Assembly (NCBI GenBank): GCA_044226625.1
Contig: JBGAGQ010000011.1
Span: forward strand, 1 to 64,000
Reading direction: 5' to 3'
Length of the DNA stretch: 64,000 bases
From: Thermoanaerobaculia bacterium
Lineage (GTDB): Bacteria; Acidobacteriota; Thermoanaerobaculia; Multivoradales; UBA5704
Below the pieces are notes generated by a model, which was given only the letters and a program-made list of their open reading frames with translations, did no database searches and was not told the DNA's origin. Made by a program: the position numbers and the translations under genes. Shown one piece after another: positions 668 through 6,352 of the stretch; within the stretch, counting starts at the first letter, position 1, and each line of letters opens with the position of its first letter.

Positions 668-3600
668 TCACCGCGGGACCGACCTCATGGCCCGGGTGAT
701 TTCAACCGTCGCGACGCTGACCGCCGTCACCCGCATCAGGAGGTCGACGACTTTCTCTTTGTAATCGGCGAAGCGGTAGGTGTCGAATTTCGCGCGGATC
801 GTAGGGTCCTTCGGCTTCTTCTCTTTGTACTGGTCCAGGATCCATTCGAGCGCGCAGCGATTTCCAAGCTGGTACTCCCATGCTTCGGGTGGAATGCCGG
901 AGAGCACGGTCTCACTGTCGAGGGTGATGCTCCCGCCTTCCTTGTTCGCCTTGAGAATTGCTTTGGGGGGTTGACCCGCGCGTTGCGCCCGCTCGTCGGG
1001 GACGTCGATGCGCCGCAGCGGAAACGGCTCGACGGTCTCATAGCCGATGTGGAGATCCATCAGACTTCGCCCCCAGTCGGCCCAGCGCCAAAAGTCTTCG
1101 TAAAACGGAATGCGCGGCAGCTCGCGCTTAAGATTCTGGGCGTATTTCTCTCGATAGATTGGGTCGTGGAGGACGCCGTAGGTGTAATGGAAGATCGCGT
1201 CCTTCGTGATCGGGCGCTCCTTCCTGCCGCGGCCCGGCTGATAGTGCTTCCTGAATCTTTCCAGAGACCAATCGGTAATGTTTTCGCGGGTTGATCCTGT
1301 CTCGGTAAACACCTTTAATGGAATCTGCTGGAAGGCATCTACTGATGCTCCAAAATGGAGGTCCGCGATCCCTTCAACCGCGAGTGCAACGAAATCCGTG
1401 CGAGATCCGATGTCGCTGAAGCAAATCGCCACGTTCTTCGCTGAAACCGGAAACATTGACCCGCACGCCCCTGGACGGTCGATGAACAGGAGCGATTGAT
1501 ATATGAACGCAGGAACGAAGGGTCTGTAGGCGGCTCTCCGGATTCTCTCCTTGGAAAATTCTTCTTTCGCCCCGGCAAGAAAGCGACGCTTGAGAGTCTC
1601 GGACCATTTGATTTCTGGGTCCTGAGTCTTTGCGGGGAGAGCAGCCCGATAGGAGCTTATGAGGTGTTCGGCTTTTTCTCGAAGAGCCGCAGGGCTCAAG
1701 TCATAGAGCCATTCATCTCGATTAGTTGAAATGCCGAGGGAATAGACTTTGAAGATCGCTCTCTCCTGACGGCCTTTGGTGGCCGCCCTTGTAGCCTTGT
1801 CCGCTACCGGGATCAGTGAATCGAAGTCGTTATTCGTCTGATTGATCCAGTTTTGCTTCGAGTCCGGCTGAACCTCATTGAACGTCAGCGAATCAATCCT
1901 AGTCTCACTAATGACCTCTAGCTTCTCGCTTGCTGTCTCCATCTCAGGGCGGCGGTAATAGAAGATCCGACACCCCTGGCGTTTTGCTCTTCTTACCAGG
2001 AACGTGATCGCCACGCCCGTTTGGATACCGAACACGTTGTGCTTTGTGCCGGAGAGTTTCGGATTGGAGCGCACGTCGCCGCCCAGGTCCACAATCCGTA
2101 TCTCGCTGAACTCATTGGCGACCACCTTGCGGAACCCATCGAACGTCCGGCTGTCGATGAAGCTTCGGTTCGTGATGAAGGCCAAAATTCCGTTTGCATC
2201 CAACCGATCGCTCGCCCAGCGGAAGAATCGAGAGTACATGTCGTAAAGCTTCGTCTTCTGCGCCGTACTCTCCGCGATGTAGGTCTTCTTGATCCGGAGG
2301 TCGATATCCGGATATTCCCGGTTCTTGTTGTTCTCGTTCTCGTTCAGCTGATTCGCGTTATAAGGCGGGTTGCCTAGGATGACGCTGATGCGCCGCGCGT
2401 TCTGGCGGCGGATACGGGCGACGTTCTCCTCGGTGACGCTGCCAAACAAAGTTCCCTGCGTACCGAACGCCGCCGTGTGAAGACCCACGTTGTCCAACGT
2501 GTCTACGAAGCAGAGATTCGGGAACTCCTCGTACTCCCCGGTGATCGCGGCGTACGTCGCCTCGATGTTCAGGTTCGCCACGTAGTACGGCAGGATCGCG
2601 ACCTCGTTCGCGTGGAGCTCCTCGCGGTACTTTTGCTTGAGCTTCGCCGGCTGACCGCGGAAATGTTCCAAAAGCTCGCAGACGAACGTTCCGGTCCCCG
2701 TCGCCGGATCCAGAATCTCCACGTCCTTGTCAATCAAACTACGGCCGAAATGATGCTGGCAGAGCCAATCCGCGCTCTCTATCATGAAGCGGACGATCTC
2801 ATTCGGCGTATAGACCACCCCGAGCCGATCGGCGGCTTTCGGGTTGTACACCTTGTAAAAGCCCTCGTAGATCACCTTCAGGAAGTTCTGCTTCTCGTCA
2901 TGCGTGGCCACCTGGGCGGCGGTGGAGCGGATCGCGCTGTAGTAGGGCTCGAGCCCCTTAAGCGTCTGGAACTTCGTATTGCCGGTGAAGAACGTGCTCT
3001 CCAGCTTGTACAGCTCGCGCGCCACGTTGTTGTCCTGGTGGAACGGCGTGCGTGCCCGGAAAGACGGCCGAGAAGATCTCCTCCGTGAGGATGTGCTGGA
3101 TCAACATCTCGCGGACGTCCGCCTCGGTGAGGCTCGGATTGATCGTCTCCCGCGCGTGGGCGAGGAAGCTCTCGGCGGCTTGGCGGAAACCGGCCTGGCG
3201 GGAATGGGCGTCCTCGATCATTGCGCGAAGGGCTTCGAGAACCTCGGGCAGGTCGAGTTGAAACTGCGCGACCGCCTTGCGGAACTGGACGATCTTGGGA
3301 TTCTCGAAGCCGAAGAACAGCGTCAGTAGCTTTTCGAGAGCCGCCACGTCGTCGACCGCGCACCGGATGACCTCCGTCCGGGATTGGAGGAGAACGGCCT
3401 CCCGGGAGTCCTCGAAGATGATGTTGTCCTGCGGATAGCCGCGCTTCAGCTTGTAGGCGATCTCGGCGTCCAGGTCGTCCTTCTCGTCCTTCGCCTCCCA
3501 ATAGCCGAACGGCAGGCGCAGCTCATAGAGCAGGGCGCCGTCCACGTAACGTCGCTCCTTGGTCGGCGATTCGATTTCGAACTCCGGAACGAAGATCAGG

Positions 3601-3731
3601 TTCTGCGACCGCGCCCATCCCTTGAGCAGGTCCTTGAACGCCTCTCGAACGACGGACTCGCGATTCGTCCCCGAAACGCGGCGCAGATCACGCAGCTGAT
3701 TTAGGTACTGCTGGATTAGTAGCTGGCTCAA
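668..3731 (-). pseudogene. Type IIG/IIL-like restriction-modification enzyme (nuclease + N6-adenine MTase + type ISP-like specificity domain), frameshifted
   Basis: The N-terminal ORF (TTG at 3731) has the PD-(D/E)xK-like VDG...YWEAKD. The second ORF has DPATGTG (motif I), GNPPY (motif IV) and a C-terminal YxxNLKRELPRIP...WEYQLGNRCALEW region. The frames join if the duplicated CGTG at 3047-3054 is removed. Confidence 0.85.
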
Positions 3732-4053
3732 GGGGGGGGTTCTCCGGCGCAAATTGTGGTCCGTCCGGCGGCAGCGTGCAAACCCTCCTCCGACTACGAA
3801 AAAGCGCAGAACCCTACAACAAAACGACTTGGCATTTCCGGCGAAAAACGAGCAAAGGCCCTATGCTCGAAAATGGACTGGAAATTACACATTCCGACGA
3901 CGTACGGTTCGCCTCGCGATGAACACGAGCCGCCCGTTGCCCATGCTTCTCGGGTCCGGATCTCGAGCTTGCCCGGGAGATCAGCCAGCTGAACTGAGGG
4001 GAACCGCGATCACCAACCCCTCGACGCCTCCGGATGGATGCGTCGACCAGGTG

Positions 4054-4093
4054 AAAAAAAAGCGCTGCGCAGAGGCTGGCCACCCCTGCGCAG
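4054..4093 (-). terminator. Rho-independent terminator for a minus-strand transcript through the repeat array
   Basis: Minus strand reads CTGCGCAGGGGT-GGCCA-GCCTCTGCGCAG, then CGC and T8. It lies just after the TGA at 4096-4098. Confidence 0.7.
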
Positions 4094-4095
4094 GT

Positions 4096-4497
4096 TCAGA
4101 CGATCGGGGAGGCCGTTGCGTGCAGCTCGGCTTCCCCTGGGTGCTCCGGTCCGCCGGCTCCCGAACGCGAGATCGAACGCCGAGGCACCGAGGCACTGCG
4201 GCAGTGTACAGGTGCAACGGCGTTTTGTAGCAGGGCAATCCGCCGGCGCACCGGTGCACGGGCACTTTGCACCGGTGCACGGCGGCGGCGTACCGGTGCG
4301 CTGGGATTTTGTAGCGGTGCACTCCGGCAGTGCACCGGTGCGCCGGAGCTTTGTAGCGGTGCACAGCGGCGGCGAACCCGTGCGCTGGCATTTTGCGGCG
4401 GTGCACTCCAGCAGCGCACCGGTGCGCCGGCGTTTTGCTCCGGTGCACAGCGGCAGCGCACCGGTGCAACGCGCGTTGCACCGCCGGTTGTGAACAC
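4096..4497 (-). CDS. Possible 133-aa Ala-Pro heptad-repeat basic peptide encoded by the array (may instead be non-coding RNA)
   Basis: GTG at 4497. The frame reads APVRCRC APEQNAG APVRCWS APPQNAS..., with Ala kept in all 14 units. The stop codon abuts the terminator. Confidence 0.35.
   Translation of the reverse strand: MFTTGGATRVAPVRCRCAPEQNAGAPVRCWSAPPQNASARVRRRCAPLQSSGAPVHCRSAPLQNPSAPVRRRRAPVQSARAPVRRRIALLQNAVAPVHCRSASVPRRSISRSGAGGPEHPGEAELHATASPIV
4189..4483. repeat. Degenerate tandem array of 14 x 21-bp units (42-bp higher-order dimer) ending in a 22-bp perfect palindrome
   Basis: A CGGTGC core or close variant occurs at 4189, 4210, 4231, 4252 ... 4441, 4462 with no indels. The palindrome CGGTGCAACGCGCGTTGCACCG is at 4462-4483. 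Confidence 0.92.
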
Positions 4498-4572
4498 TCC
4501 TAAACCTAGAACTACCAACGACTTGACCCAGCCGTCCGCCTCCGAGGCGCCCGGCTGTCGAAGGAGATCGCG

Positions 4573-4953
4573 ATGAAGCGCAGAACGTATTCGGAGCAGG
4601 TGGACCGGTGGCAGAGCGTCGCCCAGAACATCGAGGCGATGGTGCCCAACCTGCCGGGGATCGAGGGACCGTACGCGGAGCTCAAACAGAAGGTCGAGGC
4701 TCTGCGTTCGGCGCACGACAACATCCTGATGATGACCGCCAAACAGCACGAGGCGGTCCTGCAGCGGCGCAGCTTGGCCGGGGAGGTCCGCGACGCGGTA
4801 CGCCGGATCTCGGCGATCTCCCGCGGCCAGCTGGGGTTCAAGAACCCGCTGTTGGACTCGTTCGGGGTCCGCTCCGAAGACCCGAGCCGACGTGTCCGGA
4901 AGGGCACGGAGGCGACCCAGGCGAAGAAGAAGGAAGAGATCCTGCCTTCGTAA
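4573..4953 (+). CDS. Small helical/coiled-coil hypothetical protein with basic C-terminal tail
   Basis: AAGGAG RBS before the ATG and GC3-rich codons. Long amphipathic helices lead to GxxNPLLxxFG and a Lys/Arg-rich tail. It has its own terminator. Confidence 0.85.
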   Translation: MKRRTYSEQVDRWQSVAQNIEAMVPNLPGIEGPYAELKQKVEALRSAHDNILMMTAKQHEAVLQRRSLAGEVRDAVRRISAISRGQLGFKNPLLDSFGVRSEDPSRRVRKGTEATQAKKKEEILPS

Positions 4954-4975
4954 GGCTCTGAAGTCGTCGGGTGAC

Positions 4976-5005
4976 CGGGGTGAGGCTTCGACCTCACCCC
5001 GTTTT
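4976..5005 (+). terminator. Rho-independent terminator
   Basis: CGGGGTGAGG-CTTCGA-CCTCACCCCG followed by TTTT, 22 nt after the stop at 4953. Confidence 0.8.
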
Positions 5006-5047: not shown

Positions 5048-5078
5048 TTGACAGCGGTAATCGGTTTGCGCGATATTC
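5048..5078 (+). promoter_or_regulatory. Putative sigma70 promoter overlapping an inverted repeat
   Basis: TTGACA at 5048 with a GATATT-like -10. An upstream TGTCAA...GGCCA / TGGCC-TTGACA dyad overlaps it. Confidence 0.35.
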
Positions 5079-5185: not shown

Positions 5186-5656
5186 ATGACGAAGGTGCTG
5201 CGTCTCACGCTGCCCGTGCGGGTCTTCGAGCAATTGCAGGCGGAGGCGGCCGCAGCGAATCTGCGCGGCGTCGAGCTGGCCCGGCGCTTCATCGGCGCCC
5301 GGTATGCACCAGGAGCCCCGGACGGCGGCGAGAAACTCCCGCCGACTGGGAACTACGATGCGAACAGCCGGCCGAGCCGCAGCGACTCAAGGGCGCTCCT
5401 CGACGATGGAAGTCTCGCCTTTCACCGCGCCACGGACGCGTACGGCCGAATCGCCTTGGCGGTCGAACGAGTCGCCGAGGCCAACCGACGCGCGGAGATC
5501 GGGAAGGATCTGGAAATCGTGGGCGATGCCGTCGCGATCCTGCCCGAGCTGATCGAACAGCTCGAGGGCGCGCAGGCTCGGCCGGAGGCTCGCGGCGGTC
5601 GGAAGGCCGTTCCGGTCAACGACAACGACGACGAAGCCGACGAGCTCTCGACGTAG
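5186..5656 (+). CDS. Hypothetical protein with ribbon-helix-helix-like N-terminus
   Basis: GGAGGT RBS and ATG at 5186. MTKVLRLTLPVRVFEQLQAEAAAANLRGVELARRFI fits the RHH strand-helix-helix pattern. Confidence 0.7.
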   Translation: MTKVLRLTLPVRVFEQLQAEAAAANLRGVELARRFIGARYAPGAPDGGEKLPPTGNYDANSRPSRSDSRALLDDGSLAFHRATDAYGRIALAVERVAEANRRAEIGKDLEIVGDAVAILPELIEQLEGAQARPEARGGRKAVPVNDNDDEADELST

Positions 5657-5683: not shown

Positions 5684-6352
5684 TCAGTCCGATCCGCGGG
5701 ACGTCCTTTTTCCGGAGCGTGATGGCTCGACGAGGGCTTCGAGCGACTCGAGCAAGGCGTTTGCGAGCGTCAGGATCGACTCCGCGCTTCGCGCCGAACG
5801 GAGCGCTTCGGTCAGGCGTTCGGCACCGGCGGTTGCCATTTCGAGCAACGGAACCACGTCCTCGTCCGAGGGGAGCCCCGCGTCGCCGATCGCCCGCAGC
5901 CGCTCGAAGAGGGGCAGGCCGTGGGAAAGGGCTTCGCGCAGCCGCTCGAAACGCTCTTCGCGGGTTCTCCGGCCCAACTCGGCGAGCGAGGCGTCCCGCG
6001 GCGGACGGGAGGGAGCGTAGGTCGAAGCGACCTCCCGGGCGATCGGGGAGCCCCGTTTTCGGTCTTCGCGCACGGCCCCCTTGAGCTCGGCGAGCGGTAC
6101 GCCAAAGAGCGCGGCGACATGGCCCTGGCTCCGGCAGTGGCTTTCGAGCGCTTGGCGGTTGGCGGGAGAAGGCCGAATCTTCGCGCAGCAGGCCCGCCGC
6201 TCGGCGGCGGAAGGAACCCAGAGCCCCTCTTGCCACGACCCGTCCGGCTGCGTTTGACGGCCGCTTCGGGCATAGAAGGTCTCGATCGCCCGGCGCAGGC
6301 GCTCCGGCTCGGACCGCTGATCTGCTGGGGGACCGGTCGGAGAAGAATCCAT
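5684..6352 (-). CDS. Hypothetical protein with CC...HC...H putative metal-binding motif
   Basis: 222-aa ORF with PDGSW...WVPS...ERRACCAKIRPS...HCRSQGHVAALFGV followed by a helical C-terminus. Confidence 0.65.
   Translation of the reverse strand: MDSSPTGPPADQRSEPERLRRAIETFYARSGRQTQPDGSWQEGLWVPSAAERRACCAKIRPSPANRQALESHCRSQGHVAALFGVPLAELKGAVREDRKRGSPIAREVASTYAPSRPPRDASLAELGRRTREERFERLREALSHGLPLFERLRAIGDAGLPSDEDVVPLLEMATAGAERLTEALRSARSAESILTLANALLESLEALVEPSRSGKRTSRGSD

Follow-up and report, generated by a model that had tools for sequence, protein, structure and literature searches.

Dispersed DNA arrays with a period of about two helical turns accompany a family of small basic helical-hairpin proteins in Thermoanaerobaculia

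The window, by which we mean the whole 64,000-nucleotide stretch of DNA analysed here, encodes a 126-aa protein on the plus strand (4573-4953). Its gene follows a ribosome binding site (AAGGAG, 4561-4566) and is closed by an intrinsic-terminator-like hairpin with a UUCG-containing loop (plus strand, 4976-5001, the element reaching 5005); similar hairpins lie 3' of orthologous genes. An earlier note, written from the sequence of this locus, had reported the gene, the binding site and the hairpin, and all three are borne out. The product, hereafter the coil protein, is small and basic (computed pI 10.1). Its AlphaFold model (pLDDT 88) predicts a helical hairpin, in which a 16-residue helix (residues 6-21) is followed by a 57-residue helix (residues 31-87) and then by a basic tail. 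Single changes among four orthologues comprise 177 synonymous and 54 non-synonymous ones, a synonymous share of 0.77 that we read as purifying selection on the coil gene.

Upstream of the gene lies a tandem array whose core (4185..4470, unstranded like the palindrome, hairpin and decayed stretch described below) comprises about 14 quasi-palindromic units of 21 bp, alternating between an A and a B form (42 bp) and sharing a GGTGC core. Tandem Repeats Finder reports a period of 42 with 6.5 copies, 74% matches and 0% indels. Autocorrelation reaches 0.49 at lag 21, 0.66 at lag 42 and 0.70 at lag 84, and GGTGC occurs in a single phase at 11/13 unit positions between 4211 and 4463. These measurements confirm the exact 21-bp register, the A/B alternation and the lack of indels that had been noticed by inspection. 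The periodicity is far above chance: the 21/42 score is 0.41 here, and a score of at least 0.2 is reached by 2/300 random 900-bp stretches of the same genome. Over the array-core span, orthologues differ in length by 0 or 42 nt. The synonymous share of changes within the array is 0.20-0.36 across all six frames in four orthologues; because no frame shows synonymous bias, the array is taken, on codon evidence, to be non-coding.

A 22-bp perfect palindrome, described as a cap, is indeed present at 4462..4483, but it is specific to this copy; neither the palindrome nor an A8 run (4054-4061, a T8 tail on the minus strand) occurs in any of the three orthologues aligned (L003, L004 and L015). The minus-strand T8 terminator proposed at the opposite end has its parts in place, namely the A8 run and a GC-rich hairpin (4064..4093), but the U-tail is not conserved and the hairpin belongs to the array phase. 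Its stem halves are separated by 21 bp and keep the array phase, both in this copy and in L003, L004 and L015; most plausibly they are decayed units of the array. The 21-bp register is also held through the decayed stretch between hairpin and array core (4094..4184), again in the same three orthologues. Because the hairpin shares the array phase in all four copies, the phased region runs from about 4064 to 4470, or 19 periods.

Comparison with orthologues also revises the architecture of the locus, which had been described as a self-contained module with a divergent array transcript. In L003, L004 and L015 the cassette order, entirely on the plus strand, is promoter-like region, leader, PF01329-family gene, hairpin, array, coil gene and terminator. 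Judged from these alignments, the module is a co-oriented cassette and not a divergent one. Neither is it self-contained, as the plus-strand unit begins near 3790 and has lost about 0.43 kb relative to the three orthologues. The putative promoter region (3790..3918, plus strand) aligns with all three and includes a candidate -10 element, TACGGT (3903-3908, plus strand); a 24-nt motif at about 3850-3873 is found again upstream of the C75 paralogue. Despite the deletion, the window copy retains the start of a conserved leader (3919..3936, plus strand, placed by alignment), where the deletion cuts it, and the 3' remnant of a pterin-4a-carbinolamine-dehydratase-like partner gene (3937..3997, plus strand), which is intact in the orthologous cassettes.

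The catalytic motif of pterin-4a-carbinolamine dehydratases is H-[HN]-P. It is present in 0/32 of the dehydratase-like partner proteins, which carry an N-terminal LK(S/A)ERIQ motif and are found in 32/106 loci. All five partner genes tested reach the PF01329 cut-off, and the six dehydratase-like copies in the genome (on C125, C13, C76, C109, C46 and C57) are all co-oriented upstream of a coil gene.

Other elements of the locus are restricted to close relatives. An IHF-consensus-like site (4513..4525, plus strand) matches 8/9 positions of what we take to be the IHF consensus. Across 8 close-clade loci, the site stands at -58 to -61 from the start codon with 7-9 of 9 positions matched, and it is confined to this clade rather than found family-wide. 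Downstream of the coil gene are a sigma-70-like promoter (5048-5077, plus strand) and an ORF (about 5186-5656, plus strand) with no Pfam match, whose N-terminus presumably resembles that of a ribbon-helix-helix protein. This ORF follows the coil gene in several close orthologues and, together with its promoter, is possibly part of the cassette of this clade. A further ORF on the minus strand (5684-6352), also without a Pfam match, follows the coil gene alongside it in several close orthologues. On the other side, the cassette neighbours a type ISP restriction-modification-like gene (668-3752, minus strand) with matches to PF22240, PF18135 and methylases. Near 3050, at a repeat of a 4-base motif, this gene is split by a frameshift that could be biological or an assembly error.

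The coil protein has 19 paralogues in this genome (G000). Across the bacterial family to which the genome belongs (f1), matches occur in 50/60 genomes and 10/11 genera, with 4-48 matches per family-positive genome, and named homologues belong to Thermoanaerobaculia. Outside f1, 0/78 genomes in class- and phylum-wide samples have a match; a phylum-/class-wide sample of 250 genomes, with 16 candidates scored per genome, gave 1 weak match, and no phage or plasmid record matched. Family proteins are 120-140 aa long, and 102/105 have a pI >9. P0066 (264 aa), which matches the family profile and carries PF00903, is the sole longer fused form found; a fusion and a mis-called gene are both possible. 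Searches with the coil protein returned no Pfam, NCBIfam, PHROG or PDB-sequence match above cut-off. A fold search with the model gave generic helical matches only (best Z 7.3, no Foldseek hit at E<=0.001), and generic matches to a predicted fold exclude no family. The modelled hairpin contains no recognised DNA-binding motif. No description of these arrays or of this protein family was found in the literature searched, whose coverage leaves out most subscription journals; one paper, concerned with heptamer repeats in the part drawn on (PMC4679880), was set aside as a comparison.

There is strong support for a link between gene and array, which recurs at paralogues and in relatives. Among the 19 paralogues, an array lies within 700 bp upstream in 15 and within 1.5 kb in 18, with none downstream (0/19). 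In relatives the corresponding figures are 56/84 and 63/84 upstream and 1/53 downstream, for loci that represent 90 of 136 matches listed, mostly from the top, minus three duplicates of own loci. Random stretches used as a control have 6/300 and 21/300 at the same two distances. A further 26 gene matches, almost all from other genera, have 12 upstream and 3 downstream arrays, and in several subclades no array was seen near the family gene. As the earlier note had predicted, homologues are flanked by periodic arrays with different cores, and these cores are unrelated between protein clades. In a quick tree of 103 proteins, array type mostly tracks protein clade, an agreement that is expected from joint inheritance alone.

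The array in the window is one member of a genome-wide class. A scan of the genome with no preset period gave 200 periodic regions, and removal of the CRISPR locus and of short regions left 135 that are non-coding-like by a crude coding filter. Periods of 19.4-22.2 bp account for 115 of these 135 regions: 30 have a period of 20.0 bp, 23 of 20.25-20.75, 56 of 21 and 6 of 21.5-22. B-DNA has 10-10.75 bp per turn, and periods of 20-22 bp fit two turns of the DNA helix. Perfect dyad symmetry is not general among the 115 arrays, just 17 of which exceed a 6-mer dyad index of 0.4. Altogether the genome holds about 107 arrays of some 20 sequence types. Most types have several gene-less copies, and about 90 arrays lack an adjacent family gene. 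For most of the large types, at least one copy is linked to a family gene, here or in a relative; one abundant type, represented by 15 copies, is linked to none in this draft genome.

Arrays also vary between species. When four sites carrying gene-less arrays in G000 were compared with relatives, the array was found in 0/5, 0/3 (one locus truncated), 1/5 and 1/5 of them, which indicates presence or absence of gene-less arrays at the same sites. The co-occurrence of arrays and family extends across genera. In genus g10, where 0/10 genomes have a family match, 680 kb yielded 2 periodic matches, both coding-repeat-like by eye, compared with 12 in 400 kb from family-positive genera; this negative control is a single lineage of which two genomes were sampled. 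Several arrays (for example C9:80471, C22:9601, C31:33671 and C121:31991) adjoin genes that we take to be toxin-antitoxin- or restriction-modification-like, and some also adjoin other REP-like repeats.

A 16-bp motif followed at a fixed distance by a TAnnnT box occurs at 32 sites in G000 (for example C17:57428/57518 and C121:92163/92242), often as outward-facing pairs. The combination is probably a promoter class with its own regulator. Near an array or family gene lie 24 of the 32 sites. One outward-facing pair, on C121, precedes the CRISPR array there by about 330 bp.

The feature is larger in scope than it appeared in the earlier note, which missed the co-orientation, the lost upstream gene and the membership in a genome-wide class, and it is one of DNA geometry rather than of repeat RNA. 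Among the three options which that note had proposed, a phased DNA-binding platform fits best. We put the probability at about one in two that the arrays are phased docking platforms for the basic helical-hairpin protein. Under this reading the array would be a non-coding double-stranded DNA platform whose conserved property is its period of about two helical turns. The protein would find a site every two turns and assemble into an oligomer phased along a single face of the helix, and each paralogue clade would travel with its own array sequence type. As the arrays of full cassettes lie between or upstream of promoters, loading may autoregulate the coil gene, in the manner of plasmid centromere-binding proteins. 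The approximately 90 gene-less arrays would be copies of the same types that spread to intergenic sites and are bound in trans. In favour of docking are the upstream linkage, the narrow range of periods, the non-coding character of the array, the high pI of the proteins, the match of array type to protein clade, the contrast with genus g10 and the DUF6261 parallel described below. Counting against it are a generic fold with no known DNA-binding motif, the abundant array type with no linked gene, the subclades that have no array nearby and the rarity of perfect dyad symmetry, while the match of type to clade would also arise by joint inheritance.

Plasmid centromeres and iterons (parC-ParR, sopC-SopB, Rep iterons) have a helically phased array upstream of a small gene. 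By analogy, the same arrangement here suggests binding and autoregulation, and among the known systems compared these are the closest to the proposed mode of action. The system differs from them in having about 100 dispersed arrays in one genome. There is no match to the folds or families of those systems, and no NTPase or Rep gene was seen among the neighbours viewed, which were our own ORF calls, a minority of them scanned against family databases.

Two readings would place the function of the array in a transcript or its product rather than in DNA. The proposal that it encodes paired heptad-repeat peptides is favoured by four of six frames being stop-free across the core in all four orthologues. 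It is largely refuted, and scarcely credible now, given that none of the frames is biased towards synonymous change, that the candidate start at 4038 is unconserved among aligned orthologues, and that paralogous arrays have periods of 20, 20.5 and 21.5 bp, which are not multiples of three and so cannot be codon repeats. An array acting as RNA, either as a minus-strand repeat RNA of the type III toxin-antitoxin kind or as part of a plus-strand cassette transcript bound by the basic protein, is very improbable. Both strands do form more stable folds than shuffled sequences (z -4.7 for the minus strand and -6.0 for the plus strand), although quasi-palindromic repeats are expected to fold anyway, and full cassettes place the array between a pair of co-oriented genes, one of which encodes a basic protein. 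Yet the minus-strand U-tail is unconserved and its hairpin in array phase, no Rfam family matches the locus at threshold, the array stands upstream of the promoter motif in L006, L017 and L027, and periods of 20-21.5 match B-DNA geometry with no evident RNA rationale. An RNA-library assembly contributed one 151-nt contig of depth 2, matching 4589-4739, and none over the array, contigs being unable to show strand or absence. Type III toxin-antitoxin systems (ToxIN, CptIN, TenpIN) have a short tandem array beside a small gene, with a hairpin nearby, and in this they resemble the present locus. They differ in that most arrays here are gene-less and have a period that follows the geometry of the DNA helix; moreover, the coil protein has no Pfam or NCBIfam match to the ToxN/CptN/TenpN endoribonucleases and is modelled as a two-helix hairpin.

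The remaining readings accept the array as DNA but loosen its tie to the coil protein. In one, the arrays would serve an architectural or regulatory role as DNA recognised by a host factor such as gyrase, an IHF/HU-like protein or RNA polymerase, shaping supercoiling or promoters, and the coil gene would merely be regulated. This agrees with the 38/84 arrays that, when both neighbours are called, sit between convergent genes (crude ORF calls), with the A/T content of the arrays, periodic at 10-10.5 and 20-21 bp, and with the fixed position of the IHF-like site in the close clade. However, the periodicity at 10 bp may only reflect a harmonic of the 20-21-bp repeat, the IHF-like site is restricted to the close clade, and the family-negative genus should share such factors, yet arrays were not seen there; we consider a host factor improbable. 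Somewhat less so, but still unlikely, is that the arrays form the internal minisatellite portion of non-autonomous mobile elements, similar to BrickBuilt or REPIN and mobilised in trans by a separate enzyme, with the coil gene a passenger or helper of full-length elements that need not read the array. The four sites at which most relatives lack the array present in G000, the common flanks of gene-less copies of one array type, the outward-facing motif pairs near arrays and family genes, and the cassette flanks that differ among orthologues all argue for mobility. Against it, the cassettes contain no transposase, the coil family has no Y1_Tnp match in Pfam and a Y1 search of the genome gave a single weak match elsewhere, and no consistent terminal repeat or target duplication was visible by eye in the types viewed, the motif pairs being present at some array copies only. 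Mobility of this kind also leaves the same period in some 20 unrelated types unexplained.

Known mobile repeats allow a closer comparison. In REPIN-RAYT systems, as described in the part of PMC3116915 drawn on here, several repeat types are dispersed intergenically, and each also forms a cluster next to its own member of a single family of paralogous genes. Relative to that account, the likeness is that array types here are both dispersed genome-wide and placed beside a cognate gene, one large type excepted. The partner here is a 120-140-aa helical hairpin instead of a Y1/HUH transposase, the units are tandem and period-defined instead of REP doublets, and a genome has between 4 and 48 paralogue matches. 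Porphyromonas gingivalis carries two minisatellite MITEs, BrickBuilt and 464/PgRS, which are intergenic, with tandem repeats of 23 and 41 nt, conserved flanks and 10-20 copies; bidirectional promoter activity is reported for BrickBuilt, BrickBuilt and 464 have IS5-type terminal repeats, and a partner gene is not mentioned in the portion of the paper used (PMC4596501). Like these elements, as far as that portion describes them, the present arrays are intergenic, multi-copy and variable in presence between relatives. They differ from them in comprising some 20 unrelated types that have a common 20-22-bp period and are linked to one gene family.

A parallel is found in Bacteroidota, where genes for DUF6261 (PF19775) have phased arrays of 40-42 bp upstream at 23/24 testable loci in four genomes, most of them from one genome. 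As with the coil family, the gene is multi-copy and all-helical, and its upstream array is locus-specific. DUF6261 is an internal tandem duplication of a unit made of a short and a long helix (N versus C half, E 6e-4, a score reached by 0/40 shuffles; L363-L389), with helix lengths similar to those of the coil protein, whereas both protein and period are twice as long. One unit may correspond to 21 bp and two units to 42 bp. Homology between the two families was not detected, with profile-profile E values of 0.05-0.35 that are no better than reversed controls. One global score beat 40/40 block shuffles with an implausible alignment, and an Atlas score of 0.77 to DUF6261 is a lead only. This genome has no PF19775 match, and the literature searched contained no paper describing DUF6261.

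A broader proposal, which we regard as tentative and on balance doubtful, is that these systems form an undescribed class of bacterial nucleoprotein system. In it, the paralogues within a family of small helical proteins would each read a dispersed set of arrays of their own, a two-turn period would be the one rule common to the arrays, and the protein would also be needed for their spread or persistence. The 120-aa unit with 20-21 bp in Thermoanaerobaculia and the duplicated DUF6261 with 41-42 bp in Bacteroidota would be its one-unit and two-unit forms. Known phased arrays are single loci on plasmids or phages, and known dispersed bacterial repeats are sequence-defined and linked to a transposase. 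The roughly one hundred arrays described here are unrelated in sequence but agree in geometry, and they accompany a gene family that reaches 48 matches in a genome. If each protein does read its own arrays, proteins and arrays would form naturally matched pairs that bind in a way not recognised before, and possibly a new layer of chromosome organisation or of selfish spread.

Many genes of the family also share a small hairpin, conserved and with a centre resembling GCATTTCGC, about 20-45 nt upstream of the start codon and directly before the ribosome binding site. The GCATTTCGC-centred hairpin is present in several clades, for instance at L007, L055 and L062, and is a possible translational control element.
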